Shown piece by piece: positions 6,934-64,000 of a DNA stretch of 64,000 nt. The DNA lies in assembly GCA_049297775.1 (NCBI GenBank), contig JBAQUX010000017.1:21337-85336 (forward strand), in the 5' to 3' direction. The stretch comes from Minisyncoccia bacterium (GTDB lineage: Bacteria; Patescibacteriota; Minisyncoccia; Phycocordibacterales; UBA2100). The position numbers and the translations under genes are program-made. The notes under the pieces are model-generated. The model saw only the letters and a program-made list of their open reading frames with translations, ran no database searches and had not been told where the DNA came from. Position 1 is the first letter of the stretch; the number at the start of each line of letters is the position of its first letter.

Positions 6934-6994
6934 AGTAGACACAGTATACATAACTACATATTTTTTTCACTATGTTCTTGTTGTACCATAGGGT

Positions 6995-47450: not shown

Positions 47451-49436
47451 CTACTCCTCTTCTGTAATTCCTCCGTCCCAATCAGGGTTATAAACTATTT
47501 CCTGTACGTTTTCAGGCCACGGTGGCAAGTTCATTGCAGGGGCGGCTCTGTTGTAGTGACGCTTTGGAGTCTCGGGCTCAAGGATGAGCGACTCTATGAG
47601 TAAGAGTGTTTTCTTTGGATCATCGCTCGGGAATCGGTTGGCACTTGCTCTAATGCTTAACAACTTCATAAATGTTGCCGCCTGTTGTTCAAGGAAAAAT
47701 TCAACATTGTAGTTTGTACGATATGAATCACCAAAGCGCTCACGGACAAAATAATCTACGAGGAGTCTTCCCTGCTCTATGTGCTGTTCAGTATTAATGC
47801 CACTACCGAACAATGCATAGTAGAGACCAAAAACAGAATCGGAAGCTTCTGCCTTTTTTATGATTACTTCAATATCCTCATGCGTCGCCTCTGTCTCACC
47901 TTTCGTTATATCTGGCTGTGTCCGTTCGAGCTTGCCATAAACACGCTTAATTCTATCAAATCGCTTTTTTTCATTGTTAATGTATCTATTGATACGATTT
48001 TCCTTTTTTTCACTTTGCGTCGGATTACTTCCTTTTCGCGGATTTTCTTCAATAAGGCGCCTCAGGAGTCTCCGTCGTGCACCTACTGAAAGTGCTACTC
48101 CTTTCTCCTTTGCCTTATCGAGTGCCTCCTCTAATTGCGCTCGCGCATCGTTCAAAATACGCTCATGTAGTTTTTCTGGTCTGCGCACCACCATATTAAA
48201 AATTACTGACTGCAATTCATAGGTTTCAAAAAGTGGCTTGTCGGTATTACCACATAACTGCTCTGTGCACGGCTCAGTCGCAATCAATGCTTCTGCTTTA
48301 GTATTAAATTTTGAGAGTGCCTTTTCAAACCCATCTGGACTTGAACAACATTCACGCACGATAACATCATGAGGAATATAAGGATACCGCTGTGACAAGT
48401 CGTCGAAATGAACCTTTGTCATAGCGAGCCCCTCCACCACACTATGAGGATACATAAATATCAAATCGCGGAGACGCTCTTCGCTCGTCATCCATGGCAT
48501 CCGCTTACGCTCAGCTTCGTCTTCAGGACAGTATGTCGCTTTTAAATGTTGCCACACGTCTTTATACACTTCAAAGCGCACAAGTACCTGACTTGGATAG
48601 TATTTGAGTACGTGGGAAATTGTGCGCGGATCAAGTGGGTTCGGCTCCCCTTCCATTTTCTTAAATACATCTGCGCCAAAGCCGTATGCATGCGATGCAA
48701 TATTTGCCACATCTTCGATGGGTAAATTCCTCTGCATTGATGCGGTGACCAAAGGAAAAAACTCTGTGGCAAATAGGCGCAACTGTTCAACTGCGTACGC
48801 TTCTTTTGCTTGAGAGAGTTGTGCTGGTGAAAGTTGTGCTGTTTCTGTCTCAGCAATGCCATATTTTTTTGCAGCTCCACCTAACAGCTTTTTATGCAGT
48901 AACTCATGAGGCGTTGGCTGTTCGTCACGATAGAGAATCATGCGCCCGGTCTGGGAGTCCTTTGCTCGCTTTTGTGGATTTTGCACCCATTTTTTCTGCT
49001 CCTCGTTAAGACCGTAGCGATATCTAAATTTCAAAAAGAGCCCGAACCCGAACCAAAAGGCATCACCAATTTTCTTCTCAAATTCTGAGTGAGAAAGATG
49101 TTTTCCATTATATTCATGCTGTACCGTCACTGCCCCTTCTCCATCTCGTACAAAACACTGTTCGTTATAAATGGTTCGTATCGCACGGGTAAATGCCTTC
49201 TTGTAACGTAACCGCAATGCACCAATTTCTGAGTCTCTTCCGGTGTCAGGTGCCGCACGATGACTTTCAATTTTGCCCAAAAGCTCATCGAGAAATGGTC
49301 CGGGCTCTGCTTTTACCACCACCGGGTCCGAATTGCGTCGAGAGCTATCTTCACGCTCAGCGCGCATCACTGCCCTATCTCTCAAAATTGCATGTATTCC
49401 TGGCTTTTCTGCGGTCATTGCATACGAGTATACCAA
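47451..49436 (-). CDS. Hypothetical 661-aa protein (charged, helix-rich; no recognisable family)
   Basis: Long uninterrupted ORF; sits between the core genes and the tRNA-Gln/integrase junction. Confidence 0.55.
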   Translation of the reverse strand: MVYSYAMTAEKPGIHAILRDRAVMRAEREDSSRRNSDPVVVKAEPGPFLDELLGKIESHRAAPDTGRDSEIGALRLRYKKAFTRAIRTIYNEQCFVRDGEGAVTVQHEYNGKHLSHSEFEKKIGDAFWFGFGLFLKFRYRYGLNEEQKKWVQNPQKRAKDSQTGRMILYRDEQPTPHELLHKKLLGGAAKKYGIAETETAQLSPAQLSQAKEAYAVEQLRLFATEFFPLVTASMQRNLPIEDVANIASHAYGFGADVFKKMEGEPNPLDPRTISHVLKYYPSQVLVRFEVYKDVWQHLKATYCPEDEAERKRMPWMTSEERLRDLIFMYPHSVVEGLAMTKVHFDDLSQRYPYIPHDVIVRECCSSPDGFEKALSKFNTKAEALIATEPCTEQLCGNTDKPLFETYELQSVIFNMVVRRPEKLHERILNDARAQLEEALDKAKEKGVALSVGARRRLLRRLIEENPRKGSNPTQSEKKENRINRYINNEKKRFDRIKRVYGKLERTQPDITKGETEATHEDIEVIIKKAEASDSVFGLYYALFGSGINTEQHIEQGRLLVDYFVRERFGDSYRTNYNVEFFLEQQAATFMKLLSIRASANRFPSDDPKKTLLLIESLILEPETPKRHYNRAAPAMNLPPWPENVQEIVYNPDWDGGITEEE

Positions 49437-49527: not shown

Positions 49528-49598
49528 TGCTAGATCGTCTAATGGTAGGACAGCGCCCTCTGAAGGCGTTTATCTTGGTTCGAGTCCAAGTCTGGCAG
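49528..49598 (+). tRNA. tRNA-Gln (anticodon CTG), CCA not encoded
   Basis: Acceptor TGCTAGA/TCTGGCA with U1-A72, D arm GTCT..GGAC, anticodon stem GCGCC/GGCGT with loop CTCTGAA, T arm CTTGG TTCGAGT CCAAG, discriminator G. Confidence 0.75.
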
Positions 49599-51275
49599 CA
49601 AAGTAAACGAGTGAGCATCTAAACTGCTCTCACAGGCTTGTATAGAGCCAATTCTTTGTGGTTCTAACCTCGCATTAAGCGATTCTGCTACATTTGATAC
49701 GTTTTTAATGCCCAGTAGTGCTGCGGGCAAGCAAATACTGAGTTTTTTATCCTTGAGCGTGAGGTTCGAGCCAAGACCTTCAAGAACTTCTTTTTTAGCT
49801 TGCGGGTCGTTACTCGTAAGTTTCTCTTTTGCGTGTGTTGCAAAGTCTAAATATCCATTCGCAATGCCGGCCCAGTCGATTGCACGTTCGTGTACTTGTT
49901 GTGATGTATAGCGCACGTTGTTTAACTCCTTCTCTACTACACCTCGAGTTGCCAGTAGTTGCTCTGAACTAATCTCACCACTTGCTCGCATCATAACGAG
50001 GTTGTCCAGCTTTTTCATAAGTTCTGTCTCGCGCTTGCGGTTCTGCTGCACGATATGCTCTTGGTCATCAATTTCATTTCTGTGCAGATACTTTATTCCC
50101 TCGATTGCCCATTCATAGAAATCCTTCTCAATATGAATCTTTTGAACTTCCGCGAGTATCTGTGCTTCTAACTCTGCGGACTCCATGTACGGCTGCGCAC
50201 AGGCACCTCGCTTTTGCGTACAACGGTAATATGTTTTGTCTACAACCTTTAAACCTTTCATATCACTCGCATCGGTCCCACAGCGCGGGCACGCTGTAGA
50301 AATACGCATCGAAAACTTTTCTTTGCATTTGGGGCATCGAGCGTGCACTTTTCGTTCTGCCGTAATTGAACAGCCACATTCGCCGCAGTGTATATTTCCC
50401 CTAAATGGAAAAGTGTAAGTATTTATTTTTGTCGGCTTTCCACGCCTTCCAAGGAGTCTCTGGACCGTATTGAACTCGTATTCAGACACCATCACTTCAT
50501 GCTTCCCAATAAATTGGCCCTTATTGCCCTCTTCATCGTTCCACTCGAAATGCCCATAGTAGAAAGGGTTTGTGAAGATGTTGTAATAGCTTGCACGCGA
50601 ATAGATTTGACCACTCTTGTTCTTTAAGCCCAAAGCATCTCCCTCGCGCTTAATATCTGGCACAGAATACTGCCCAGAAATCATCTTCTTCCAAAGAACT
50701 TTCACAATTCCAAACGAATCAGACCGAACAATCTGATCTCCAAGCTTACCTTTGCCGCGGTGCGCGTAGCCTGGCGGCAATACAGACGCAGGGAACCATC
50801 CAAGTGAGGCTTTATATCTCTGACTGCGCTTTACGTCCGTACTTAAATCTTTTACATATTGATTCGACATGCCAAGCTCTACTGCCATCATCATGATATT
50901 GTCTGCAGGCTTGTAGACCCCAGAATGTGTTTGTATGTAAGCAATTTTTCCACTCTGCAACATGTGAATGATCTTCCCGCCATCTACAAAGTTTCGCGCG
51001 AGGCGATTTATCTTCCAACAGATAATCCCATTTGCCTCACCCTTTTCAATCCTTTTCAACATTGCATTAAAGGCGGGCCGTGCCTCTGGCTCTTTAGCGG
51101 ACTTGCTTTCCAAAATAACGTCGAGGATGTTTATCCCTAGTTTTAAAGCTAGGGACTTCATTTCACTTACTTGGTTATCAAGCGACAGGACCTGCTTATC
51201 CTCAGTGTCCGTAGACTTTCTTCCATACAGAAAGCACTTTATATCTCTACTTTTCAGGGGGTTAAAGTTGTTCAT
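49539..51275 (-). CDS. Large serine recombinase (integrase), 3' end overlapping tRNA-Gln
   Basis: N-terminal resolvase-type catalytic domain (FLYGRKSTDTEDKQ with catalytic Ser; ICWKINRLARN), recombinase domain, Cys-rich zinc-ribbon (CGECGC..CPKC..CPRCG), C-terminal coiled coil. Confidence 0.85.
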   Translation of the reverse strand: MNNFNPLKSRDIKCFLYGRKSTDTEDKQVLSLDNQVSEMKSLALKLGINILDVILESKSAKEPEARPAFNAMLKRIEKGEANGIICWKINRLARNFVDGGKIIHMLQSGKIAYIQTHSGVYKPADNIMMMAVELGMSNQYVKDLSTDVKRSQRYKASLGWFPASVLPPGYAHRGKGKLGDQIVRSDSFGIVKVLWKKMISGQYSVPDIKREGDALGLKNKSGQIYSRASYYNIFTNPFYYGHFEWNDEEGNKGQFIGKHEVMVSEYEFNTVQRLLGRRGKPTKINTYTFPFRGNIHCGECGCSITAERKVHARCPKCKEKFSMRISTACPRCGTDASDMKGLKVVDKTYYRCTQKRGACAQPYMESAELEAQILAEVQKIHIEKDFYEWAIEGIKYLHRNEIDDQEHIVQQNRKRETELMKKLDNLVMMRASGEISSEQLLATRGVVEKELNNVRYTSQQVHERAIDWAGIANGYLDFATHAKEKLTSNDPQAKKEVLEGLGSNLTLKDKKLSICLPAALLGIKNVSNVAESLNARLEPQRIGSIQACESSLDAHSFTLLPDLDSNQDKRLQRALSYH

Positions 51276-51328
51276 GGTTTTTGACTAGGTTGTTAAAGTA
51301 TACAAGAAAGTTTTGACTGGCGAAAATA

Positions 51329-51550
51329 TTACAATTTCCCCGAAACATTTTTCACAGAACTTATAAAGCGCATTAACCTCAATCCCTCTTCCTGAGCACA
51401 TTCATAGGATATATCTACACCAAAGTGTAACTTGTATAAACTCATGTATTTGAGTATATGTTCCTTTGGTAATACCATGTTTGTTTTGAAAACTTCTCCC
51501 TGCTTCTGGAGTATCAAAGGAATACGGTGAGGGAAGCTGTGTGTGGGCAC
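51329..51550 (-). CDS. Hypothetical small protein (73 aa)
   Basis: Only ORF between integrase start and a 340-nt ORF-free stretch; weak support. Confidence 0.25.
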   Translation of the reverse strand: MPTHSFPHRIPLILQKQGEVFKTNMVLPKEHILKYMSLYKLHFGVDISYECAQEEGLRLMRFISSVKNVSGKL

Positions 51551-51889
51551 AGATTCTCTTGTGTTGTCATTTTCTTCTCCCTGCCCCTGGATACACCATT
51601 AGGTTTCCGGCGATTTAGAAGACATATCAGCATTGTCTCCGTTGGGAAGTTTCTCTGTTTATGCCGCGTGTCAGTTTGGATTATATGCTGTGTTTATGGC
51701 GGGCATACGAGTACCACAAACACCAAACTGATCTATTTTAAAGTGCTCATCCCTCGGTCCAAGCACTTACGATGTTGACAACATCACGTATATTTCACTC
51801 GCTACACACACATCGCGTAGTAATGCGAGGTCCTTTAGCCTTACTCCTGCAAGGCATGGTCAAAGAATATATTTTGCTAGGTTAAAAAA

Positions 51890-51925
51890 ATATGCAAAAT
51901 AAGGTCGCGACCTTATTTTGCATAT
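51890..51925 (-). terminator. Perfect 36-nt palindrome (atatgcaaaataaggtcgc|gcgaccttattttgcatat) overlapping the stop of 51913..52665; T-run on the minus strand
   Basis: 18-bp perfect stem without loop spacer, followed by TTTTTTT on the minus strand. Confidence 0.55.
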
Positions 51926-52665
51926 TTCCTTATTTCGTCCCTTATTTCCTTGCGTATTCTTAATATATGAGCCTGCTCATACTTTTTCCCAAACTTTGAT
52001 TTCACGCTGTCACTAAGTTTACCGATACCCAACTCGACATTCTTCCGAATATGCTCCCTCAACTCTTGGGATGATTCCTTTGGCCTTCGTGCTATTCCGA
52101 GTTTCACCTTAGGATTTTTGTGATATTTTTGCATCGGCAAAATCTCTCTCTGGTACTGATTCTTTACAAAACTAAGAATATCTTCCTTTGACACATATGG
52201 TGAAATGAGAATGGCGACAGGGTGATTTTGTACATTATGGCGAAGACCGTCTTCAAAAACTTGCTTCTCCTCTTTGTCCCAGTGCGGACCATTCAACTCT
52301 AACTGTATATTTACAGTTTGGATAAGTCCGTGCATTTGCAAATCTAGAGAGCCGCTCGGAAGCCAATCGTTGTAACATACATAATAAGAAAAAGTTTCAA
52401 CCCATATTGGCTCGAGCTTGAGCTTTTCGAAAACAATCTTTTCTATATCCTGGTAGAATTGTTTAGGAAGCGATGGTGTAGTTATGTTTTTCTCCTTACC
52501 GGGGAATCCTTTAACGCGAGCAAATGTTTCGTACCCACCCAACGGGATACCGTACTTTTTTCTTATCTTCCTAATTGATTCTGAAAGAGGGCGTTTTTCA
52601 ACCGTACTCATTAAATAGCTCCACACTTTTTGGTTTGGGTCTTGCATACGGATTGTGTCACTCAC
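51913..52665 (-). CDS. Hypothetical protein (250 aa, Lys-rich C-terminus)
   Basis: Clean ORF with strong terminator; no recognisable family. Confidence 0.5.
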   Translation of the reverse strand: MSDTIRMQDPNQKVWSYLMSTVEKRPLSESIRKIRKKYGIPLGGYETFARVKGFPGKEKNITTPSLPKQFYQDIEKIVFEKLKLEPIWVETFSYYVCYNDWLPSGSLDLQMHGLIQTVNIQLELNGPHWDKEEKQVFEDGLRHNVQNHPVAILISPYVSKEDILSFVKNQYQREILPMQKYHKNPKVKLGIARRPKESSQELREHIRKNVELGIGKLSDSVKSKFGKKYEQAHILRIRKEIRDEIRKYAK

Positions 52666-52897
52666 AATTTTAGTCCCTATATGATAAAATAACCAGTACG
52701 CCCTGGAAGGGGTGGCACCTAACCCTATTCATCTCACGATGAGCAGGTATGGTGCACAGTCGCAAAAAGCATAGAAAACCCGTCATTGGGGTGCTTTTTG
52801 CGCCGTACAGGGAAACTTGTATGAGGGAGAAATCCCTACCTTCAGTGGCGGGTTTTTTGAGTGCCACGTTTTGCTTATCAATTTTCATTACAAAAAC

Positions 52898-53092
52898 ATG
52901 AATATAAAATGCGCACTCATTGCATTCATTGCCTACCTGGTACTCCTTATGATCGTAGTCACCTCTGGCATGGCGCATGGATCATCCGACATCGTAAGTA
53001 TGTTACTTGTTCTGGTTGCGATAGGAGTATATAAGCTGTGCGCAGTATACGAACCTAATGACAAGCAAGAGGAGAAAACAATCAAAGAATAA
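52898..53092 (+). CDS. Small 2-TM membrane protein
   Basis: MNIKCALIAFIAYLVLLMIVV.. start at ATG 52898 inside the ORF 52817..53092. Confidence 0.35.
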   Translation: MNIKCALIAFIAYLVLLMIVVTSGMAHGSSDIVSMLLVLVAIGVYKLCAVYEPNDKQEEKTIKE

Positions 53093-53094
53093 CT

Positions 53095-53478
53095 GTGAAA
53101 GACCCCGACTCGCTTTTATATGAATATTTGCAAGCATGCGCTGACCTATTACATGCGCAGTCTGTGAAAGATAAGTTCAAATGCAAACAGTATCTAGTCA
53201 TAACGACAATCCTCTTTTTTGCGGTCGCATGTATTGTGTTCGCAGTGGTTGACCGCTTATCATTCTGGGACCTAAGCATAATCATACTGCCCCTCTTATT
53301 TTTGGGCGCACCCCTTCCGTTCGAAGCTCACAGCAGCTATAGCCATAACAAATCCAATGCACTGGAAATTGAGGGTATATTGAGCAAATGGCAACGCAAA
53401 TATTCAGACGAAAGGATTACAGCAGAAATACATATCCTCAGGAAAGAAGCCGAGTCCATACTAAAAAAATATGAATAA
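53095..53478 (+). CDS. Hypothetical membrane protein (2 TM)
   Basis: 127 codons, 8-nt overlap with the next gene (operon). Confidence 0.45.
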   Translation: MKDPDSLLYEYLQACADLLHAQSVKDKFKCKQYLVITTILFFAVACIVFAVVDRLSFWDLSIIILPLLFLGAPLPFEAHSSYSHNKSNALEIEGILSKWQRKYSDERITAEIHILRKEAESILKKYE

Positions 53479-54211
53479 CGAATCCGGACTAGTGGCACTG
53501 ATGAAGTACGTTGAAGGCTCGGGCATGTGTCTCGAACACACCTGCACCACCTGCGGCAACCAAGACTTCCGCACCGCTCTCGCTTTTGTTGCCTATGGCC
53601 ACAGTCCCGCGAATAAACAAGACTGGACAGAGACAACGAAAAGCCATGACAGCACAGCGATACCGCTTTTGTATAGAGGTAACACGCAAACCCACCTACA
53701 AAACAAGCTGCTAGAGGCGATAAAAGGCACTCTCTGGCACGAAACTGTGCGTGTAGCACCAAAGTCCTGGTTCGATATGATGCGCATCATTCTGGACAGT
53801 TTTAGGGGTAATAAACGAGCAAAGGATGTCTCAATGGTTATCGCACGTGACATGCTGCAAGTTGCCGTACCCGGGACCGAACTGCATACACAGCTTGAGC
53901 GAGTCGCAGCAGTTGATACTGCTGATGTTCTCACAGGCACGCTACTGCTACTGTTTGCGCGAGAGGACAGAAGAAACGACACGCCGGAGAGCATGAATAG
54001 ACTCGAAGAGATAAACAAGCGCGCAGGCTCGCTATCACTTGCAGATGTAGAGATTCTCACCGATGCGGAGGTTTTGAGTATGTCGGTCCCACGCCCGGGG
54101 CACCCGACACATCGTGGTTTTATGCTCAATCCCAAGTATTTCAAAGACCAAGAGCACTTCTCGCAGATTACTCACACGCTCATGCAGCGACTAATGCGTA
54201 TCAAGCACTGA
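53471..54211 (+). CDS. Hypothetical protein with CxxC cluster (CLEHTCTTCGN)
   Basis: 246 codons, no recognisable family. Confidence 0.5.
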   Translation: MNNESGLVALMKYVEGSGMCLEHTCTTCGNQDFRTALAFVAYGHSPANKQDWTETTKSHDSTAIPLLYRGNTQTHLQNKLLEAIKGTLWHETVRVAPKSWFDMMRIILDSFRGNKRAKDVSMVIARDMLQVAVPGTELHTQLERVAAVDTADVLTGTLLLLFAREDRRNDTPESMNRLEEINKRAGSLSLADVEILTDAEVLSMSVPRPGHPTHRGFMLNPKYFKDQEHFSQITHTLMQRLMRIKH

Positions 54212-54440
54212 TTTTGTACGTAACCGTCACAACTCAGACAATTCCTTCAGGCCTGGTCTTTTCCGTCACTTTCCGTCATGACGGATTGCAACTTAACTTT
54301 TACACTTCTACGGCTTAAGTCTTGGAGGCTGGGTGACGGATTCTCCCACAAAACCTTCAGTCCTAGCGAATAATCTAAGCTGTATGTGCAGATTCGGCTC
54401 GTGTAGTTGTATCGTCTCGATTTAGGTCTATACTTGCCCT

Positions 54441-54659
54441 ATGTATATCCTCACACAGTACTTCATAACCTTCGGTTGGGCACTTACCGCCGCCCTCTCT
54501 ATGGCTGTTGCTATTAGCATTGGTCTTAAGATATTCACCTACCTTTCTCCTATTGATGAATGGGGAGAAATAAAGAATGGCAACATGGCTATGGCTGCAA
54601 TTCTTGTCGCCACCATTCTCGGTATGGCATACGTAGTAGCTGCTACCATTAACGCATAA
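54441..54659 (+). CDS. DUF350-like small 2-TM membrane protein
   Basis: 72 codons, two hydrophobic helices separated by EWGEIKNGN loop. Confidence 0.45.
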   Translation: MYILTQYFITFGWALTAALSMAVAISIGLKIFTYLSPIDEWGEIKNGNMAMAAILVATILGMAYVVAATINA

Positions 54660-54661
54660 CT

Positions 54662-54985
54662 ATGAAAGCTGTGGTGTGTCTCACTCTTGTACTTCTTGTC
54701 GCTCCCGCGGTTACATTTGCACACCCGGGTAGAACAGATGCTAGTGGGTGCCACACTAACAAGAAGACCGGTGAGTATCACTGTCACGGCACTACCCCAG
54801 ATGTTCGCACCGCCCGGACCGAGGCACGATCAGAAGCTCGTAATATCTATGACAAGGATTGCAAAGACTTCCATACACAACAAGAGGCGCAGGACTTCTT
54901 TATTTCACAGGGAGGTCCCACTTCAGACTCACATGACTTGGACCGAGATCATGATGGTGTGGCATGTGAAGACTTACGGAAATAG
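54662..54985 (+). CDS. Secreted protein with C-terminal Excalibur calcium-binding motif (DLDRDHDGVACE)
   Basis: Signal peptide; DxDxDGxxCE motif at C-terminus. Confidence 0.6.
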   Translation: MKAVVCLTLVLLVAPAVTFAHPGRTDASGCHTNKKTGEYHCHGTTPDVRTARTEARSEARNIYDKDCKDFHTQQEAQDFFISQGGPTSDSHDLDRDHDGVACEDLRK

Positions 54986-54987
54986 CC

Positions 54988-55497
54988 ATGAAGGGTATGT
55001 ACATAGTCGTAGGTGTTTTGGTATTGCTCGCAATGCTTTCCGGCGGCACGAACACTGTTGAAAAAGCCGGTGAAGCAGAGTCTGAGGCACATTCATTTGC
55101 AGTAAGCACACCTACCGCAACCCCGAGTACATATAACAACTACACGGGAGAGTACGATGAGCCCGAAGACATAACAATAGATCGTGTTGATGCAATATAT
55201 GATCATTGGGACGAGATCCGTGAGTATGTTAATGGCTCAGAGACAATAGAGGCATGTTCCTCCTCAAGTGGTAACTGTTATGACTTGGATGCTGATATAT
55301 CATCCGGCTCTATAGAGCAGATAGGCTTCGAGAATGGAGGATATCTCTACTTTTCAGCAGAGATTGATTCAGATGGAAATGCATCTGACACTGATGTGCG
55401 AGGTGACAGTTGGGATTTTACATTAGATATGGACTCTTCTATCGTTGATGATGCCGTACAGGAGTGGGCAGACTATGAAGGGTATGAGGTGGAGTAG
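54988..55497 (+). CDS. Secreted acidic (Asp/Glu/Ser-rich) protein
   Basis: Signal peptide, highly acidic low-complexity body. Confidence 0.5.
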   Translation: MKGMYIVVGVLVLLAMLSGGTNTVEKAGEAESEAHSFAVSTPTATPSTYNNYTGEYDEPEDITIDRVDAIYDHWDEIREYVNGSETIEACSSSSGNCYDLDADISSGSIEQIGFENGGYLYFSAEIDSDGNASDTDVRGDSWDFTLDMDSSIVDDAVQEWADYEGYEVE

Positions 55498-55499
55498 TC

Positions 55500-57791
55500 T
55501 CACATATTGTCAACCGTTGTCGCTTCATTTGCCAACGAGATACTCCCAGGACCTTCATCTGTTGAATCTTCCTTATCTAAAAAGAGCAACTCTCTTTCGT
55601 TCAATTTAGCTATGACTGGCTGTTTCAACTTCAATGCCTTTCCGATTATTATCGCATGTCTATCATCAAGTGTGGGAAGAATATTAGAGAAATCTGAACC
55701 GATATAGTTTTCTAGAAACTGTTTACCAGTGTCATCGAATACTCGCAAAGCGAATATTGTATTGCACTGATTCAAAATACTTTTACTTATATTTGCAGTG
55801 CGCTGAGTAACTACCATACTACCAAGACCGTACTTTCTTCCTTGCAATATAACTCTCGCCGTACCATTTGCAGCACTCTTGTCACCCTCATTTGCAACTG
55901 AGTTCCATTCTGGTATCAACGAATGAGCCTCTTCGTACACCAAAAATGCTTTTGCCTTTTCGGTTAAACCAGAGTCTCTACAGATTTCTAAAACTGTCTC
56001 GGACAATATCCGCGTAATCTCTGCAACAGACATCTCAGAGAATGGTGCGTACATCGACCAATTTTTCCCATCAAGTTGTCCGTTTTTTACATTCTCTTCT
56101 TGCTTCAGCGCAGTGATCTCCTCTGGATTTACTACTAAAACTCTTTTGGTGTTTTCTGTACTAAAAAATGCACCAAGCGCAGACCTCAGACATTCTTTGA
56201 GCAATTCAATGTCTCCACCGTCATGCTTAGAAACTTTTGGGATAGTTCTTGTTGTTTGCGTCGCAAGTTCGCTATTTAGTGTGGAAGTATCGAAAACCTA
56301 AAGTGCATCTTCTTGCAGGTATCGAGGTAAGCCGTGACTTTTATTCGCATACTGTCCTGTAATATCTATACATATTATTTTTGTCTCAGTTTTAGCACAA
56401 AGCTTTTGTATAAGTTCAAATGTTAAACATGACTTTCCTACACCAAGAATACCCAAAATAGCAGTATTATGTGTCACCAACGCATCGTAATCAGCAATTT
56501 GCATAACAAAATCTGTCCCCGGAAGTCTGCCGATACTATCTCCAGGTTTTATTTCCGCATGATTTTCCTGCGCGAATAGAGGCGCATACCCGTCCGGAAC
56601 CCATTTTGCCGTTAGTATTTCCTTTTTCTCTACGCTATATGTGCCAAGTTTTCTTGCGACACCCACAAGATATGAGTCGTTGTCGTGCCCAATGAGGTCA
56701 TCTCGTTTAGTAAATCCATCAAGTACTTGATATAGAACGTCTACGTTTCTAACCATAGAGCTCACAATCATCCCTTCTGTGATTTGAGAGCCCACATCGT
56801 TATTAAATATTCTAAACTGGACTTTATTAATATGTGAGTCTGGTAGAACATACCCTACGAGTGACTTACGGTTTTTGTATAACTCTGTGTTTTGTATGCG
56901 CCCCAGAGTTTCTGAATCAATATCCGCAGCATTCATTTTATATGCCTTATGGCTCGAGGTAATGTTTGTAGTTTCTGATTCAAAAACTTCACTGGTTAGC
57001 TCAGAAAGTACATGAACTAAAATCCAATTTTTGTCCAGTAGCATATTTTTTTGTACGACCACACCAAAACTCTTCTCCCCACGCTCATGAATCCTAACAA
57101 GGTCGCCCAAAGACACACTTTCTTGTGTATTCCTTGGATCTATTTCAACCTTAAATACGTATTTACTCTCATTACCAATTACTTTTCCTAAATATGTTTC
57201 TCGATCCCAAAGATTTCTCAAAAACTTAAATATGCCATCAATGACGTTTTCAACCAGGAAGCCTGAGATGAATACTACCCAAAAAGAAAAGAGTAAAATC
57301 TGGGCCACTTTATCTGATTGAAAATATGAGAATGTGGTGCTCAAGTAGATAACCGAATAAGCGACTTTTGATCTACCGAAATAAGTTAAGATGTTGCCGA
57401 AGATGTCAAAATATTTTGAATGTTCATATTTCCTAACAAGTAGTATGTAAAGGACGGAAAGTCCAACAAGCATTGAGGCGCACCCAATGAGAAAATCTCG
57501 CCCAATATATGCGTCAATGTCGTTTATGCCTAAGAGGAAGAGCAGGACACCAGTTGCATTAACCAGAACATCTGTAACTTTTGTAAAAAAAGGCTCGGCA
57601 ACATATGCGCCAAAAATAAGGAGTAGTCCGCCTGACACAAATATTTTGTTATACTGTGTTGAACTATCCAATATTGCCCAGAAATCTCCACCGGTTAGGT
57701 ACGTCAAGATTCCTAGTAGTACAAGTATATACACAACCACAACTAAAATCCTTTCTTTGAATCCCAGCTCTATTTTGGCTAGTGAAGACAT
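55500..57791 (-). pseudogene. Membrane-anchored HerA/FtsK-superfamily P-loop ATPase interrupted by a single in-frame TAG (56298-56300)
   Basis: N part (56298..57791): six TM helices, HAS-barrel-like segment, Walker A GILGVGKS. C part (55500..56204): Walker B FLVYEEAH and VVTQRTANISKS (TQRP-like) motif. Both parts are in the same frame; 31 sense codons lie between the TAG and the called TTG start. Confidence 0.7.
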
Positions 57792-57879
57792 GTCGAGAAG
57801 TATATCACTTTGCTTTATTTTTCGCCTTGGATGATTTTTCTACACTCATCCGTCCGAGAGAATAACGATCCTAACCTCC

Positions 57880-58284
57880 CTAAGGGTAGAGACTCGCGTA
57901 GTATTGTGCAATCTTCGTCATATCCGACTCAAAACGTTCCTTATCATCTTTGAATAAGCTCTGGGAACCAAACAGCGGTGAATCTGGCTCTGAAAAAACG
58001 TAAAAATCCCCCTGTACTGCTTCGCAGTGTGGGCATACATTTGCCCAATATTCACTATCACTCATTTGTGTGTAGCTTACTTTTACAGTTTTCGGTATTG
58101 GCTCAGGAGGTACTGATGGCTCATCTGCCCACTCATCTTCAGGCCACACGAACGCAACCATCTCCCCTTTACATTTCCAGCATTTATAGGGAGCGTAGCG
58201 GTATTTATATCCTTCAGGTAACGACACCTTAGTTGCCTCAGATATACGATTTATTACCAATAGAAACTGTTCGAGATTTTCCAT
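57880..58284 (-). CDS. Small zinc-ribbon protein (CWKC ... CPHC)
   Basis: 134 codons with two CxxC pairs; co-oriented between the 1011-aa gene and the ATPase. Confidence 0.55.
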   Translation of the reverse strand: MENLEQFLLVINRISEATKVSLPEGYKYRYAPYKCWKCKGEMVAFVWPEDEWADEPSVPPEPIPKTVKVSYTQMSDSEYWANVCPHCEAVQGDFYVFSEPDSPLFGSQSLFKDDKERFESDMTKIAQYYASLYP

Positions 58285-58333
58285 ATTTTATGATAGATCA
58301 CTGAAACTATTGCTTGCAAATAGATTTATTGCT

Positions 58334-61300
58334 CTAGTCTTTCTTAACAATATCGACCAGCGGCCAAAATGGCTCACTGCCTGCGGCGACTAAATCATTC
58401 ACAAGATCTCTCACAGCAGGCCTCAATTTTTCATTAGAGTAGAGGGCTGTAAACGCCTCTTCCCATGTTTCGTCAATATAGACCCACCGCAATTCATCGT
58501 TGCGTAACTTGTTATCACTTCCAAGGAAGTGTAGACGAATGATTGTAAGCGTATCTTCCGGTGCTGCGTTTGCCAGCAATGGGAGTGACTTGGTCATACC
58601 GTGATCCCAACTGAGGAGTCCCGAGGTCTTCTCCATAGTTGCTCTCAGGTGCTTTGCTAAATAAGGTAAGGATATCACACCCTCCTCCGCATCAACCCAA
58701 AGCCCAAACGACGAGAGTATTACTCGACTTTCAATATGCTCATTTGCCCAAGTCCAAAATGCGAGCAAACGTTCGAGGAAGAAGTGGTTGTTTTTTGTTT
58801 GTTCTTCTATCCATTTTTTGGCACCTGACCTTGAGAAGGCCTGCCCGCCAATAAACTTAATAAACTCTGAGAGTCTTTCTTCATTCTGTGTGTCAATAAA
58901 CCTCTTTAGAATCTCACTATTCTCCGGTGAAAAATTGTCGTAGTGCATGAACGCCAAACCGAAGTGCGTAGCAAGGCCTTCGTCTAGATCACGGAAGTAT
59001 TTGCGCTTCGTGTACCGATCTTTATTCAACTCCATTAGGTAAGAGTATTCGGGCTGCATTGCCGTGAACACGTCGTACCACAGACCAGACGTTAAATATC
59101 CCTCCATAGCGGCAAGGTACAAATCGTTATTATTTCTATCGAAAATCATCCCAAAATGCTCTTGCATCCATTTCGGGTCTCGTAGGTAAAATGTTGCGAG
59201 ATACTTACCAAACAAGAATCTAACCGCACGAGTCTTCTCATTCTGAGCTAGCAGTACGTAGATAGACTTCACATCATCGCTTAAACGTATTTCGTCAGTC
59301 TTCTTACCTTTCTTTTCCTGCAACTGCACGTCCTTATCCACAAACATTGCAAGTGCCTGAAAGGCACGGCCACGAACAGAGTTTATAGCCTTTGTAAAAG
59401 GATCTGACTCCGAATACTCCTCTTCACCATCGTACTTAGTTCTGAGCTTAGGAATCTCTTCCTCTGGCGTAGGATCACTACTGACAAGCAGATATGCAAG
59501 GGTCTCGATGAAAAATTGCCTATTCTTTTCAAAACTGACAGGCTCACCGTCATACCTAAGCAGGTGGTGCAATAAATCTGTCAATGCCACACAAACCCCA
59601 TCCCAGTCAGACAAAAAGAAATCCTGGTTATTCTTATCACGAGTAACCTTAGAAAAAGGATTCGATTTACCAGATTCAATTATTTTTTGAATAAAAGTTA
59701 TTACACTGCTCTGTTGGTCAGGAGTGAGCTTGCCGTCTTTTTTTAAGTAACCAATAACACCCCAAATATATTTGTATGTATAGCCGGGGTCGATACTTTC
59801 CCGATCAAAGAAGGATGCGGCATTGTCGAGGTATTCAGACGGTCTCTCCGCAAAATCCTCTTCAATTTCTGCCGCAACCCCAGAAGCACTAATTGGCCTC
59901 AGGAAGTTTTGACTTGTATCTTTAATATTTTCAGGCCTAAGACGAGTCTTAAGCAGCTCGATCACTTCGTTAAGTGGCTTACCCTTTACAGACTCTGGTG
60001 CCTGTGGAATAACAGTGCCACCTGTCACTCCACTCGACATTGGTGTAGGTATGTAGTTTGGGTCTAACTTCCAACCTAACCCTTGCATTTTTGCCTTCAG
60101 CTCTTCGTTTAAATGACTGTGAATACATGACGCAATGCGAGAGGCACGAATAAGCGAAAATCTTTTTTCGTCCTCTTTTTCATCAGCGGGAAAGAGCTTG
60201 AACAGGCCATCTATATATTCACTTTGTTGTTCATGAGACAGAAAGTTGAAATGTCGCTTTAGCAAAGTTGCATACTCAGCGCCATACATTAAGTCGTGCA
60301 GCTCTTCCTTATTCTTTACGTATAGTATTCGCTGAATTGCCTCCACGATTACATCCTTAAGTGCATCTGGAGTCAAAGACATCAGTGAGAGCTTTAGTCT
60401 CCATGTTGTCTCACTTTCAGTCAAAGCTCTTGGAAACTGTTCGTATACGTGCACAATATTTAGAGCAAAAGCATTCTCAACAGCCTTCTTATACAGCAAC
60501 TTGTAAACTGCAAAAAGACTTCTGATATCTTCCTGCGAGTAGCTCTCTATATTTAATACATCCAGTTCAAAAAAGTCTACATCGGAAAAATAAAGCCCAT
60601 CATCGAGTCCTGATTTTGATTCTTGAGGATACATTTCCATTGCGAGTTTTACTACACGGTTGAGTGCATCATGCACAATATTCAAGCTCTGCTCAGGTTC
60701 ATTTGTGGAGAGTAGTGCTTCCACAACTCCCGTTCGTTTAAGATCATCTACATAAAACCAGCGTCGTGAATACGAATGTTCAACGTCGCTATTCTTCTCG
60801 ACACCTTTTACCGTAAGGACAATTTGTGCCAACTTGTTGATGGTGGTATCGTCACCCGCACTCTTTAAAGTCTTAAACATTTCATCATACTCAAATCCCC
60901 AAGTTCTGTAAGCTGCAAGCCAGTGCACCCAATCTTCGGCAACCATTTTTTCAACAAACTTTGCAAGATTTTCTGGTGAAAACTTAGTGGCAATACTGCG
61001 GAAGCGAAGCGGGATATTCACATTTACATTTCCCTCTTTCAGAGGTAGCGATAGAATGTGCTTTGCAACCAAATCTTCATCAAACTCAACCATTCTTTCT
61101 AAAAAACGCATCTCGGGAGAGAAATATGTTTCTTTACCTATTGTATCAAGACTGAACTTTTCAATTGTCAGAAACTGATTTTCAATCAACCACAACAGCC
61201 ACTCTTTGCCAATTGTCGAAAAAATAAATCTTCTAGCATCTAAACTTGGGTTAGAAAGTTGAACAAACAATTTCGCGGCGGAGTTACTGTTAAAGTCGCC

Positions 61301-61369
61301 GTTCACGATCTTTGTAATCTCATTATGAATCTGAATTGGATCAGTTGCCATATTGGTTGTTTTCTTCAT
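58334..61369 (-). CDS. Large hypothetical protein (1011 aa, predominantly alpha-helical, no recognisable catalytic motif)
   Basis: Uninterrupted 3-kb ORF, 29-nt overlap with the upstream 250-aa gene. Confidence 0.6.
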   Translation of the reverse strand: MKKTTNMATDPIQIHNEITKIVNGDFNSNSAAKLFVQLSNPSLDARRFIFSTIGKEWLLWLIENQFLTIEKFSLDTIGKETYFSPEMRFLERMVEFDEDLVAKHILSLPLKEGNVNVNIPLRFRSIATKFSPENLAKFVEKMVAEDWVHWLAAYRTWGFEYDEMFKTLKSAGDDTTINKLAQIVLTVKGVEKNSDVEHSYSRRWFYVDDLKRTGVVEALLSTNEPEQSLNIVHDALNRVVKLAMEMYPQESKSGLDDGLYFSDVDFFELDVLNIESYSQEDIRSLFAVYKLLYKKAVENAFALNIVHVYEQFPRALTESETTWRLKLSLMSLTPDALKDVIVEAIQRILYVKNKEELHDLMYGAEYATLLKRHFNFLSHEQQSEYIDGLFKLFPADEKEDEKRFSLIRASRIASCIHSHLNEELKAKMQGLGWKLDPNYIPTPMSSGVTGGTVIPQAPESVKGKPLNEVIELLKTRLRPENIKDTSQNFLRPISASGVAAEIEEDFAERPSEYLDNAASFFDRESIDPGYTYKYIWGVIGYLKKDGKLTPDQQSSVITFIQKIIESGKSNPFSKVTRDKNNQDFFLSDWDGVCVALTDLLHHLLRYDGEPVSFEKNRQFFIETLAYLLVSSDPTPEEEIPKLRTKYDGEEEYSESDPFTKAINSVRGRAFQALAMFVDKDVQLQEKKGKKTDEIRLSDDVKSIYVLLAQNEKTRAVRFLFGKYLATFYLRDPKWMQEHFGMIFDRNNNDLYLAAMEGYLTSGLWYDVFTAMQPEYSYLMELNKDRYTKRKYFRDLDEGLATHFGLAFMHYDNFSPENSEILKRFIDTQNEERLSEFIKFIGGQAFSRSGAKKWIEEQTKNNHFFLERLLAFWTWANEHIESRVILSSFGLWVDAEEGVISLPYLAKHLRATMEKTSGLLSWDHGMTKSLPLLANAAPEDTLTIIRLHFLGSDNKLRNDELRWVYIDETWEEAFTALYSNEKLRPAVRDLVNDLVAAGSEPFWPLVDIVKKD

Positions 61370-62093
61370 GTTCTGATTCTAGTATCAAGGAGTACATTTG
61401 CTCGTCGATTTTATTGAAGACATGCTCAGTCAACTCCTTGTGACTTTCAAGCTTGTTATATCCATTGATCAAATCTTTAAACTTATTTAGACTCTCAGAG
61501 GTAGGGAGTAAGCATTCCTTTCTTGCAATTTCTCCTAGGAAACTTATTGCACTAACATAGTCCTTTCTATCTACACATCCACATGCACTCTTATATGATG
61601 TAATCGAGGAATTGTAACTGTAGATCTGTGGCATCTTTTCAATTATGTAGCTACGTCGCCCGCTTACTTTAAATGCTTCAGGCTCTGCACTTAGACTTCC
61701 AATACCACTTGACACAGGGCCGAAAAAAATACTTTCAATTGGGCCATTAACAACTGTTTGATGCACAGTCGATTGTTCGTTTGCAGAAGCGACTGCACTG
61801 GCCTTACTGAGGTCGGCATTGCCAGCTCCTATTGTATCTTCTCTTCTAAAAAAGCTCGTTGCGAGGCGATGAAAACCTGTGCCCATCAAGAACGTCGCGA
61901 ACAGCGTCATTGCGTATTGATAAGTAAAATCGTCTGCTTGAAAATCAGGGAAGAGAATATTATGTAGAAATGGGTATGCGATTGCAAAAGTCTGCCCGAA
62001 GACAAGTTCACCAGCACTAACAAGCCAGGGTGCAGAATCAACCGATTGATTCGCATCTGAGAACATTTTTTTAACTGATTCGAGTGCATTCAT
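61341..62093 (-). CDS. Hypothetical protein (250 aa, one hydrophobic segment)
   Basis: First gene of the minus-strand operon; preceded by a 380-nt AT-rich region with a palindrome. Confidence 0.5.
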   Translation of the reverse strand: MNALESVKKMFSDANQSVDSAPWLVSAGELVFGQTFAIAYPFLHNILFPDFQADDFTYQYAMTLFATFLMGTGFHRLATSFFRREDTIGAGNADLSKASAVASANEQSTVHQTVVNGPIESIFFGPVSSGIGSLSAEPEAFKVSGRRSYIIEKMPQIYSYNSSITSYKSACGCVDRKDYVSAISFLGEIARKECLLPTSESLNKFKDLINGYNKLESHKELTEHVFNKIDEQMYSLILESEHEENNQYGN

Positions 62094-62194
62094 CGATGGT
62101 CTGACTTAGATACACATTATACCACGCGCATAATACAGGTTCTAACCTTCCTAAGTTCTGCCAGCACATGAGCGGAGCGAAAGTGATGACAGAA

Positions 62195-62216
62195 GTTATC
62201 AAATAGTTTTGATAAC
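62195..62216. promoter_or_regulatory. Perfect 9-bp inverted repeat with 4-nt spacer (GTTATCAAA tagt TTTGATAAC), candidate operator
   Basis: In the intergenic region upstream of the 61341..62093 operon. Confidence 0.35.
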
Positions 62217-62270
62217 GCCTTGGACTCGAAGACCGGAGCGATGTTTTTGTTTGCAGTACTCTGCAAGGCA

Positions 62271-62292
62271 AAAACCGCGAGGTCCGGTTTTT
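62271..62292. terminator. Bidirectional terminator hairpin (aaaaccgcgaggtccggttttt)
   Basis: Stem aaaccg/cggttt flanked by A-run and T-run, downstream of the 62476 gene. Confidence 0.4.
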
Positions 62293-62475
62293 GGAAAAGT
62301 GAGTCAACACTTTTACCAAAAAGAGTCGAGTCTGGCAGCCAAGTTTAGTTAATAGAAGATAAAAAAAACGTTTATAAATAGTGTTTTTTATTAGAAAATT
62401 ATTTTTTCACTTTTACAATAATTTTTCATTACTGCCCAACTTTTGATACCCTGACAACAATTATCAATTTTATAA

Positions 62476-64000
62476 TTAATACTTGTTGTTAGCAGGAAAC
62501 AACTTTCTTGCTTCTGCCAAGTTAACTCTGAATTTATAGCCGTGCTTTTCTAGTAGCCCAAGTAGCTTTGCACCATCAAGCAATGTTATTGGTTTGTTTT
62601 GAACGAAAGCATAAGCATCTGCTCCAAAAGTACTAGTGGTAACAAGTATTCCTCTTGATGCACCTTCATGAGCGACAACTGCGACCAAGTCTCTTACAGC
62701 ACTCACATCTACAGTGTTTGTATATCTTTTAGCTTGAATTACATACTTACCACCCCTAATAGGGTCAGGATTAAAGACAATAGCATCGACGCCTTTATCA
62801 CGGCTCGATTGAGTTAATTTAATCTCTGTTCCTTCTTCAGAAAACTCTTTTTGGAAAAGCTCAGCAATAAGGTTTTCAAAATCCTGCCAATCCATTGATG
62901 CAAGGTTGGTTTGCGCATCTAGTGTTCCAATCACTTCCTTGGTCTTAATAAACCTCTTATCCTTTTTATCCAAAGACATTACAGGAGACACAGGAATAAT
63001 ATCTATCAATTTACCTGCAGACTTTCCTTTAAGACCTAAGAATGCCGACAACGGATCGAGCTTAGATAACTTAAGTTGAACTATTTGCTCTTTGGTTGTT
63101 GCAAGTGAAGCTGTATATGTACGAGTTAAATTACCTGTCGCAGGATCATCAAATTCTACCCAGCCATTAAGGACAAGGAGTTTAATTTTATCTGCATCAT
63201 CGTTGCGAAATATTTCATATGCAATTCGCAGCATAACAGAAGGATGTATATTCGGAATTAATTCCTTACCTTCTTTAATCGTGAGAGGTTTCTCAACTGT
63301 CTCCCTTTTGAGATGGACTTCCTTTAGGACTTGATTGTGTACAACATCAGGCAACTTTATTTCGACAATTGCAATACCCTCGTTAACGTCAAAGTCTATA
63401 TCCCAAACTTTAGGAATAGATGCTGGAACAGTGATGTTATCAATGACAAAGTTAAATCGTTTGATAACGTCTTCTTTTTCGCCTTTTTCATAACCACTTC
63501 TTATAGCTTTGAAGAAAGCTTTCGCTTCATTTCCTTCTTGAATATCCTTCTCGATTGTCTTATTAAACTCTGCTATTTCATTATTTAAGGCATAAATTGA
63601 AGCAAGGTTTGTAAGCTTGTTGCTCTCAACCTTTGAAGAAAACGACGGGAAAGGCTTGGTCTTATGCGGTTGTTTAACCAAATCTTTTTCAAGTTCATCC
63701 CAAGGGTGCAAATCGGCAGAAAGTATTAGAGGTATATCCTCAATACAAAGACTACCCTTCTCTTTTCTCTGTCGAGTTGATTTTAACTGTGAAGAATCTT
63801 TTCTTTCTGCTTTAACCTTGGCAAATTCTGCTCTATACCTTTTTACGTTACGCTCAACTTCTTTTATTGTTTCTTCCTGCTCCCATCTTTCCATTCTTAA
63901 TTTTCTTTCCTTTTCTGCTCGCTCATTATCCTCGGCTTGGTTTCGAGCTGTAATTATATCTTTTTCTGCTTGTAATTCTTTTTTTCTGTCAGCAAAGGCA
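62476..64000 (-). CDS. Mrr-cat (restriction-endonuclease-like) domain protein with long coiled-coil/charged N-terminal region; 5' end beyond window
   Basis: C-terminal MDWQDFENLIAELF...GVDAIVF...VIQAKRY...RGILVTTSTFGADA matches the Mrr N-terminal catalytic domain pattern. The reading frame stays open upstream of the called ATG (63894) to position 64000. Confidence 0.7.
   Translation of the reverse strand, partial: AFADRKKELQAEKDIITARNQAEDNERAEKERKLRMERWEQEETIKEVERNVKRYRAEFAKVKAERKDSSQLKSTRQRKEKGSLCIEDIPLILSADLHPWDELEKDLVKQPHKTKPFPSFSSKVESNKLTNLASIYALNNEIAEFNKTIEKDIQEGNEAKAFFKAIRSGYEKGEKEDVIKRFNFVIDNITVPASIPKVWDIDFDVNEGIAIVEIKLPDVVHNQVLKEVHLKRETVEKPLTIKEGKELIPNIHPSVMLRIAYEIFRNDDADKIKLLVLNGWVEFDDPATGNLTRTYTASLATTKEQIVQLKLSKLDPLSAFLGLKGKSAGKLIDIIPVSPVMSLDKKDKRFIKTKEVIGTLDAQTNLASMDWQDFENLIAELFQKEFSEEGTEIKLTQSSRDKGVDAIVFNPDPIRGGKYVIQAKRYTNTVDVSAVRDLVAVVAHEGASRGILVTTSTFGADAYAFVQNKPITLLDGAKLLGLLEKHGYKFRVNLAEARKLFPANNKY

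Follow-up and report, generated by a model that had tools for sequence, protein, structure and literature searches.

P4-type islands and tycheposons share a characteristic layout: an integrase gene lies by the 3' end of a tRNA gene, a partial repeat of this tRNA marks the distal end, the cargo is variable, and the composition is atypical. The same layout was recognized in a stretch of 64,000 nucleotides (nt) from the chromosome of a Minisyncoccia bacterium (Patescibacteria; GenBank assembly GCA_049297775.1, contig JBAQUX010000017.1, positions 21,337 to 85,336). This stretch is called the window hereafter, and all positions are counted from its first nucleotide. The segment between 49.6 and 62.34 kb is most likely an integrative genomic island, inserted into the 3' end of the tRNA-Gln(CTG) gene by a large serine recombinase (LSR). 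The island is genuine and belongs to an ordinary, familiar kind, with some unusual parts. The less familiar parts are the tRNA-targeting LSR, whose reading frame overlaps the tRNA, a LOOT RNA, and a gene cassette for a Dsr1-like solenoid protein. Patescibacteria have tiny genomes, and to our knowledge, few of their mobile elements or defense systems have been characterized.

The island differs from P4-type islands and tycheposons in several respects. The recombinase is of the serine type and its frame enters the tRNA, the distal repeat is short and imperfect, the host belongs to Patescibacteria, and replication or packaging genes were not recognized in this island. In the order of its domains (resolvase, recombinase, and zinc ribbon), the enzyme is similar to phage serine integrases, Ccr of SCCmec, and XisF. 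These described enzymes mostly target protein-coding genes or rlmH, whereas LSRs of the clade to which the window enzyme belongs occur at tRNA 3' ends, with at least seven tRNA species represented. A preprint on tycheposons reports an LSR in place of a tyrosine recombinase in 27 of 937 such elements (10.1101/2020.12.28.424599).

Genomic Island at the tRNA-Gln Gene

The tRNA-Gln(CTG) gene was identified with ARAGORN and with the Rfam tRNA model (59 bits), and its 3' part is on the attL side. The 49 kb upstream are ordinary chromosome, including genes for alanine-tRNA ligase, a P-type ATPase, and flavin adenine dinucleotide (FAD) oxidases. A first-pass annotation of the window had proposed an accessory island adjoining an integrase at this tRNA, and the proposal is supported by the atypical k-mers, by the link of the LSR clade to tRNA genes, and by the tRNA-Gln loci of distant relatives, which lack the island genes.

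The tetranucleotide distance from the core mean is between +2.5 and +9.8 standard deviations (SD) in every 4-kb interval starting at or beyond 50 kb, and the maximum in the core is +2.4 SD. The k-mer signature, suggested as a check in the first-pass annotation, is atypical from about 50 kb onward and is clearer than the G+C content (GC); the uniform composition across the window that would have spoken against an island was not observed. GC is 0.436 for 1-49527 and 0.418 for 49600-64000. For 49600-62344 it is 0.4256, and the lowest value among core intervals of equal length is 0.4273. The earlier description of this DNA as visibly AT-rich holds in that GC is lower overall, but the drop is only 1-2 points and patchy. 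GC is above the core value in the recombinase gene (0.447) and the plus-strand operon (0.465), and only the genes for the HerA-family ATPase (0.39) and the Mrr protein (0.375) are clearly AT-rich.

The nearest species representatives are Patescibacteria with at most 55% identity for a conserved FAD enzyme; the lineage is thus poorly sampled, and the comparative tests are limited accordingly. A comparison of the tRNA-Gln locus, also proposed earlier, was performed with eight distant relatives. Their tRNA-Gln genes, with the anticodon CTG in one and TTG in seven, are located 1-7 kb from the FAD gene and are followed by homologs of core genes of the window. None of these neighborhoods contains an island gene. 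A tRNA-Gln gene within a few kb of an HI0933-like FAD gene was seen in many distant Patescibacteria (L014, L022, L026, L027, L030, L031, L032, L037, and L142). This linkage is loosely conserved and holds in the window too (42071-43378 and 49528).

Sister Element with Similar Cargo

The 1011-aa solenoid protein encoded by the island has one close relative, which is encoded on a 23.7-kb contig (L007) from the Logan metagenome assemblies. L007 shares five genes with the window in the same order, encoding the CxxC, DUF350, Excalibur-domain, Zn-ribbon-like, and solenoid proteins (Table 1). The synonymous divergence (dS) of these genes is uniform (0.74-0.94), and their ratios of nonsynonymous to synonymous divergence (dN/dS, 0.02-0.18) indicate that all five are real genes under purifying selection.

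L007 is different in other respects. The alignment jumps from position 54976 of the window to 57890, and the segment 54977-57889, which includes the genes for the acidic protein and the HerA-family ATPase, is absent from L007. The small membrane proteins and the upstream partner of the solenoid protein are replaced. L007 encodes its own LSR (14098-15822), which shows no BLASTP similarity to the window LSR and abuts ychF, not a tRNA gene. Such a mosaic pattern is typical of mobile elements. That cargo of 78-96% identity occurs next to another recombinase and at another site backs the reading of the window segment as an accessory island. No direct repeats were found for the L007 element. A frameshift separates the catalytic N-terminus of the L007 LSR from the remainder of the protein, and about 50 nt at the 3' end of its gene overlap the beginning of ychF.

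Large Serine Recombinases Associated with tRNA Genes

The integrase of the island is an LSR, not an enzyme of the usual tyrosine type. Pfam recognizes the Resolvase domain (PF00239, 5.4e-17, residues 15-139) and the Recombinase domain (PF07508, 1.8e-7), and the match to Zn_ribbon_recom (PF13408, 2e-5) is marginal, with 25.1 bits against a cut-off of 25.3. The protein matches the integrase family PHROG 95 (3e-55), and its best NCBIfam matches, all weak, are CcrA, XisF, and CcrB. In an alignment of 30 LSR sequences, S21, R19, and other residues of the catalytic domain are invariant, as are eight Cys residues. The window LSR is predicted to catalyze recombination between attP and attB at a central dinucleotide.

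The LSR frame enters the tRNA gene in antisense orientation by 61 nt, with its final ~20 codons (49539-49599) formed by the reverse-complemented tRNA sequence. Homology search revealed 3068 homologs, the closest of which are 55-59% identical and come from Patescibacteria including Ca. Kaiserbacteria. Close homologs (51-59% identical, Patescibacteria) end in '...LLPDLDSNQD.RLQR..SYH', and more distant ones end in '...LCAGxDSN.RR...'. The 'DSN' of the tail corresponds to GACTCGAAC, the reverse complement of the conserved T-loop of the tRNA, and a part of what appears as protein conservation of the LSR is therefore really conservation of the tRNA. The antisense-tRNA tail is a family trait, not an accident.

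An alignment-based scan of JGI metagenomes yielded 80 loci with LSR relatives of 34-49% identity; a scan of JGI metagenomes with the single recombinase sequence yielded nothing. At 36 of the 80 loci, a tRNA gene on the opposite strand overlaps the 3' end of the LSR gene or lies within ~60 nt of it. These tRNAs are for Asn (22), Tyr (5), Gln (3), His (2), Ser (2), Arg (1), and Ala (1). Many of the JGI contigs stop right at the boundary of the LSR and tRNA genes. This clade of LSRs appears to target tRNA genes. No description of the clade was found in the literature searched.

A similar arrangement was found in another Patescibacteria metagenome-assembled genome (MAG; L142), where a 57%-identical LSR sits on a 92%-identical tRNA-Gln(CTG) gene, with core genes on the tRNA side and genes for Fic and type I restriction-modification on the other side. 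The L142 element is longer than 10 kb, and no repeat was found within reach. Type III restriction-modification genes are the cargo in L113, L095, and L124. The cargo is otherwise not common to the window island and the related LSR loci. With type I or type III restriction-modification genes on related LSR/tRNA elements, the class behaves as small mobile defense islands, and this LSR clade marks small tRNA-integrated islands, often with defense genes.

Two further observations concern these recombinases. An LSR 100% identical to that of the window is recorded (P0155) on an 11,490-bp NCBI contig, which perhaps represents the island assembled alone in another MAG. A c-di-GMP-I riboswitch is present at 699-807 (+) of the tRNA-Gln-associated relative L128, ~9 kb upstream of the recombinase gene.

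Probable Right End and Model of Integration

The 3' end of the tRNA-Gln gene recurs as an imperfect direct repeat in an intergenic gap, and this copy is the candidate attR. The tRNA sequence GAGTCCAAGTCTGGCAGCAAAGT aligns with the distal copy GAGT-CGAGTCTGGCAGCCAAGT, which is the best match in the following 14.3 kb. Of the 23 aligned columns, 20 are identical, with two mismatches and one 1-nt gap. The score of 14.0 exceeds the null expectation of 10.2 +/- 0.9 (maximum 13.5) from 300 first-order Markov simulations. Serine recombinases need no long repeats, and identity is needed only at the crossover dinucleotide; the imperfect repeat fits a recombinase with this requirement. Position 62.34 kb is probably the end of the element, so that the Mrr gene lies outside. 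The first-pass annotation had stated that the right end is beyond the window, which is probably wrong for the recombinase element, given the copy of the tRNA end.

Independent metagenome assemblies (Logan) that are 100% identical to the window were used for comparison. Contigs of the left flank from two samples end at 49596 and 49600, and a contig of the right part of the island ends at 62314. These breaks near both att sites are suggestive, if weakly, of alternative paths in the population.

Following the standard LSR mechanism, attP of the circular element would include a tRNA 3' end belonging to the element, which overlaps the end of the LSR gene. LSR dimers would synapse attP with the chromosomal tRNA gene, and cutting and rotation would occur at the central dinucleotide. 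The tRNA gene would be rebuilt with the 3' part brought by the element (attL), and the original 3' fragment would be displaced to attR at 62323-62344. The predicted junction of the empty site is the tRNA ending in ...GTCTGGCAGC followed by CAAGTTTAGTTAATAG, or ...GGTTCGAGTCCAAGTCTGGCAGC + CAAGTTTAGTTAATAGAAG. The predicted junction of the circle is ...CTTTTACCAAAAAGAGTCGAGTCTGGCAGC + AAAGTAAACGAGTGAGC.

LOOT RNA and the Plus-Strand Operon

The positions of the features are summarized in Table 1. The LOOT RNA was missed in the first-pass annotation. The match is full-length, covering model positions 1-121 of 121, and is 28 bits over the gathering score. The RNA occupies the gap from which the recombinase-side module and the plus-strand operon diverge, and the first ATG of the operon (52898) follows after ~60 nt. 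Among the 11 related LSR loci scanned, three also have LOOT: L142 at 6832-6947 (-), L113 at 5006-5127 (+), and L101 at 6276-6394 (-). In L142 and L101, it is ~50 nt upstream of a gene on the same strand that heads the cargo, and in L113, it overlaps the 5' end of the next open reading frame (ORF) on the same strand. Rfam classifies LOOT as a small RNA gene, whereas here it is found close upstream of a same-strand operon in LSR islands, and this geometry suggests a leader rather than a free small RNA. Beyond the Rfam entry, neither an association of LOOT with islands nor a function of LOOT was found in the literature searched.

Table 1. Positions and properties of the features in the island region of the window.
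Feature	Position	Strand	Description
tRNA-Gln island	49.6-62.34 kb (~12.7 kb)		most likely inserted in the 3' end of tRNA-Gln(CTG)
tRNA-Gln(CTG)	49528-49599	+	attL-side 3' part
LSR, 578 aa	49539-51275	-	Resolvase, Recombinase, and Zn_ribbon_recom domains
Basic protein, 73 aa	51329-51550	-	directly upstream of LSR
Palindrome, 25 + 25 nt	51883-51932		no spacer, 92% complementary; at the 3' end of the 250-aa gene
Basic protein, 250 aa	51913-52665	-	recombinase-proximal module
LOOT RNA (Rfam RF03000)	52716-52837	+	74.3 bits, gathering score 46.4, E 1e-12
Two small proteins, 91 or 64 aa and 127 aa	52817-53478	+	two hydrophobic segments each
CxxC protein, 246 aa	53471-54211	+	conserved cargo; 78% identical to a 255-aa protein of L007, dN/dS 0.18
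DUF350 small membrane protein	54441-54659	+	PF03994 2e-8; 96% identical in L007, dN/dS 0.02
Excalibur-domain secreted protein	54662-54985	+	PF05901 2e-8; N-terminal hydrophobic segment; 92.5% identical in L007, dN/dS 0.05
Acidic protein, 169 aa	54988-55497	+	D+E 38, K+R 5; N-terminal hydrophobic segment; in the 2.9-kb segment absent from L007
HerA-family ATPase	55500-57791	-	membrane-anchored; interrupted by an in-frame TAG
Zn-ribbon-like protein, 134 aa	57880-58284	-	two CxxC pairs; 89% identical in L007, dN/dS 0.085
Solenoid protein, 1011 aa	58334-61369	-	all-alpha, HEAT-like; PADLOC Dsr1 7e-21; AlphaFold2 predicted local distance difference test score 89.8; 78% identical in L007, dN/dS 0.15
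Upstream partner, 250 aa	61341-62093	-	overlaps the solenoid gene by 29 nt; moderately hydrophobic N-terminus
Candidate attR, imperfect direct copy of the tRNA-Gln 3' end	62323-62344	+	intergenic gap
Mrr-family type IV restriction enzyme	62476-63894	-	PF04471 9.9e-32; PADLOC mREase_IV 1e-45

All the genes named earlier for the plus-strand operon (52898-55497) were confirmed. In the model of this island, the first part of the cargo is the LOOT RNA ahead of an operon for membrane, CxxC, DUF350, secreted Excalibur, and acidic exported proteins. The hydropathy peaks of the two small proteins are 2.5-3.0. They have no homolog in L007, where a 247-aa membrane protein holds their place, and the segment 52817-53478 is a variable part of the element. 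The 246-aa CxxC protein has no Pfam family match.

Solenoid Cassette

The C-terminal alpha-solenoid of DSR2 is reported to bind a phage tail-tube protein (PMC11850899). The solenoid protein of the window shares with Dsr1 and DSR2 a large alpha-solenoid body, which is homologous to the C-terminal helical region of Dsr1. It differs from them in having no SIR2 domain and in belonging to a cassette of three genes instead of a single gene, with a partner that is a soluble helical domain or a hydrophobic protein. The partner, the solenoid protein, and the Zn-ribbon-like protein constitute this conserved three-gene cassette.

A full HMMER search revealed at least 670 clusters (50% identity) of the solenoid family with E <=1e-3, of which 187 show E <=1e-30. 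The homology extends over the full length at 25-35% identity, and the members fall into two size classes, ~1000 aa and ~1150-1200 aa. The family lacks a model of its own in Pfam, NCBIfam, and PADLOC. Residues 436-843 of the window protein match positions 713-1076 of the 1227 positions of the PADLOC Dsr1 model (PDLC04166), and this model is matched by five of eight family members tested, with P0020 aligned over positions 295-1204. A SIR2 domain was not found in the solenoid protein with Pfam or PADLOC, and the N-terminal extensions of the longer members are not SIR2 either. The solved folds nearest to the predicted structure are importin-beta, CAND1, symplekin, and CRM1, generic HEAT/ARM proteins.

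The additional ~170 residues of the longer members constitute a helical domain, in which S-x-R, Y, HH, Q, and H are invariant. In L059 and L060, this domain is encoded by a separate upstream gene that overlaps or abuts the solenoid gene. The product of the overlapping upstream gene is different in the window, L007, and L061: it is a 240-250-aa protein that has hydrophobic helices at its N-terminus, and two transmembrane segments are clear in L007 and L061. A HEPN assignment of the helical domain was considered for its Rx4H-like motif 'RQIDxH' and was rejected, since the Arg is not invariant and the split partners lack that helix. A fold search with this domain gave no significant match, HEPN chains appearing only at E > 2. 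A small gene is found downstream in most contexts, encoding a Zn-ribbon protein (window and L007), Zn_ribbon_Top1 (L060), a 111-aa protein (L061), or a MazG-like protein (L144). After the family member P0007, this downstream place is held by a Zn_ribbon_Top1 protein. Among the neighbors of the family at other loci are Mrr_cat in L060 and, in L144, MazG-like and Schlafen-type helicase proteins.

A large conserved repeat protein whose small partners are exchanged, in accessory surroundings, is reminiscent of an immune sensor. By analogy with DSR2, the solenoid protein would sense a phage component, and the interchangeable partner would be the effector. The cassette is a tentative candidate for an abortive-infection or defense module of this kind, a sensor with exchangeable effectors, and the odds are somewhat against it. 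Several observations weigh on the negative side. Solved DSR2 chains gave no sequence match to the solenoid protein and are not among its top structural matches. The hydropathy peaks of the window partner (1.33 and 1.03) are below the standard transmembrane threshold. The defense reading rests on ~30% of the Dsr1 model, the neighborhoods of five loci, and analogy, and the fold is generic. The wider proposal is more doubtful still: that the cassette (57880-62093) may be an undescribed, widespread prokaryotic immune system in which a Dsr1-type solenoid sensor is paired with swappable effectors replacing SIR2, either the ~170-aa helical domain in fused or split form or a membrane protein of two helices, carried on unrecognized tRNA-targeting LSR islands with a LOOT leader.

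HerA-Family ATPase and Mrr

The 'ATPase module' noted earlier in the minus-strand block is indeed a HerA/DUF87 ATPase, but it is a single gene split by a TAG codon. Matches were obtained with Pfam DUF87, PADLOC HerA (8e-25), the NCBIfam model for anti-phage HerA (1.5e-17), and HerA chains in PDB (3e-20). GILGVGKS and the LVYEEAH region correspond to Walker A and Walker B. The N-terminal ~190 residues include about five hydrophobic segments. In known SIR2-HerA and DUF4297-HerA systems the ATPase is of the same kind, in that the HerA core here best matches anti-phage models and chains solved by cryo-electron microscopy. The window protein differs from them in its multi-pass membrane N-terminus, its interrupted frame, and the lack of an adjacent effector: neither SIR2 nor DUF4297 was found beside HerA, whose neighbors are the Zn-ribbon-like protein and the convergent acidic exported protein.

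The single in-frame TAG (56298-56300) splits the gene into ORFs of 497 aa and 234 aa. It is present in three independent metagenome assemblies and is therefore not a sequencing error. Recoding of TAG was rejected, as TAG is a common stop that ends 17 of the 53 ORFs in the window. The interrupted gene is probably the result of a nonsense mutation (a pseudogene) or a split gene. The membrane HerA gene was probably acquired as a 2.9-kb insert and is now broken by the nonsense codon.

The identification of an Mrr-cat protein in the same block was upheld (Pfam Mrr_cat 1e-31), and the mREase_IV match spans 349 residues. Nowhere in the window does the composition deviate more than in the Mrr gene (+9.8 SD). 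Like other type IV Mrr enzymes, the protein has the Mrr_cat (PD-(D/E)xK) nuclease domain. It differs in that its N-terminal ~100 residues have no family match and in that the gene is located beyond the candidate att repeat. Immediately past this candidate attR, it is probably an accessory gene of its own at the same hotspot.

Alternative Explanations

Several points weigh against an island inserted by the LSR and ending at 62.34 kb. For the inferred insertion, the searched collections, in which the lineage is poorly sampled, gave no close relative whose tRNA-Gln site is empty. A 22-nt imperfect repeat is expected from the restoration of the tRNA, not from LSR chemistry. The contig ends (49596, 49600, and 62314) miss the predicted junctions slightly, and different variants, or a tRNA shared among organisms, could account for them. 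The deviant composition continues past 62344 up to 64000, and the accessory region is thus larger than the element.

The last of these points is the starting point for a different explanation, in which a larger composite or tandem island extends past 64000, the repeat at 62323-62344 is a chance match or an internal junction, and Mrr belongs to the same mobile unit. The strongest deviation is indeed at 60-64 kb (+9.8 SD; GC 0.36 after 62344), Mrr-type genes are found near solenoid-family members elsewhere (L060), and the L142 element, longer than 10 kb, shows no repeat within reach. The repeat, however, exceeds all 300 simulations and is intergenic, a contig break is 9 nt away, and even tandem islands at the tRNA would leave 62.34 kb as a true element boundary. 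A composite island is thus regarded as unlikely, though with some weight. That the region is not mobile at all, but a fast-evolving region specific to the lineage, with a recombinase that serves for something else, such as inversion or developmental excision, is the least probable of the readings considered. It would agree with the missing empty site, with a GC near that of the core, and with a flanking gene for a 661-aa protein that is almost without homologs. It is at odds with the atypical k-mer signature, with the tRNA linkage of the recombinase family, with the occurrence of the same cargo beside a different recombinase and chromosomal neighbor in L007, and with relatives that lack the island genes.

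Two other readings concern the kind of mobile element, and both are judged very improbable. The region could be a decayed prophage or phage satellite, its serine integrase and cargo being left from a temperate phage of Patescibacteria; the recombinase does belong to the PHROG 95 'integrase' family, the Excalibur-domain protein matches two PHROGs with no assigned function, and L007 encodes a Peptidase_S74 (tail-fiber chaperone-type) protein 2 kb past the shared region. Yet capsid, terminase, portal, tail, and lysis families are absent from the 16 proteins of the island region within the window (Pfam and PHROG), the related elements carry restriction-modification genes instead, and neither the recombinase nor the solenoid protein has relatives in 2.9 million viral contigs. 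A phage origin was rejected on the lack of structural PHROGs among the window proteins and of relatives in viral contigs. Some actinomycete integrative elements transfer with a single TraB-like protein, and the membrane HerA/FtsK-type ATPase could likewise be a translocase for double-stranded DNA in a self-transferring or mobilizable element. An N-terminal membrane domain joined to a motor of the HerA/FtsK superfamily is the architecture of a DNA pump, and faint NCBIfam matches of the HerA core to a VirB4-type ATPase of integrative and conjugative elements (0.008) and to the DNA-translocating ATPase CedD (5e-4) are the sole conjugation-like signals. Against a pump, the ATPase matches anti-phage models and structures of HerA best, the gene is stopped by TAG in three samples and absent from L007, and no relaxase, coupling protein, type IV secretion component, or replication initiator was detected in the window proteins with Pfam and NCBIfam. 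An integrative island with its right end at 62.34 kb remains the preferred reading.

Other Features of the Window

Homologs of the 73-aa protein occur in three LSR loci, ~125 nt upstream of the LSR in L135 and L074 and ~2.2 kb upstream in L113. It has no family match in Pfam or PHROG, and a role as an accessory or directionality factor is a guess. The 250-aa recombinase-proximal protein is 34% identical to a 259-aa protein at the equivalent place in L007 and has a weak match in L121; it has no Pfam, PHROG, or NCBIfam match. The palindrome at its 3' end was scored as terminator-like and is possibly a bidirectional terminator or a protein-binding site. Logan contigs from two samples begin or break in this palindrome, at 51898.

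The 661-aa protein on the other side of the tRNA (47451-49436, -) has a core-like composition and carries the NCBI annotation of a Minisyncoccia MAG protein. Only three clusters were found among 5.8 billion proteins, the nearest being 42-46% identical, and no relatives were found among 185,579 species genomes. The genes for these 42-46% identical homologs are in a different context without a tRNA.

TGA ends one of 40 core ORFs and three of 13 island ORFs (hypergeometric p ~0.04). The stops of the 40 long core ORFs in 1-49527 are TAA (28), TAG (11), and TGA (1). A genetic code with recoded TGA was rejected, as table 11 gives long, contiguous ORFs and an ATGA overlap terminates one of the core genes.

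Implications

The region presents a complete small island with probable ends in a Patescibacteria genome. If confirmed, the LSR clade would represent compact site-specific integrases with naturally conserved targets, possible tools for hosts without genetics. The link between LOOT and these islands is a starting point for the function of an orphan RNA, which, if the link is true, gets its first biological context. The solenoid family is a large, testable defense candidate, and its effector-swapping pattern is typical of immune systems.

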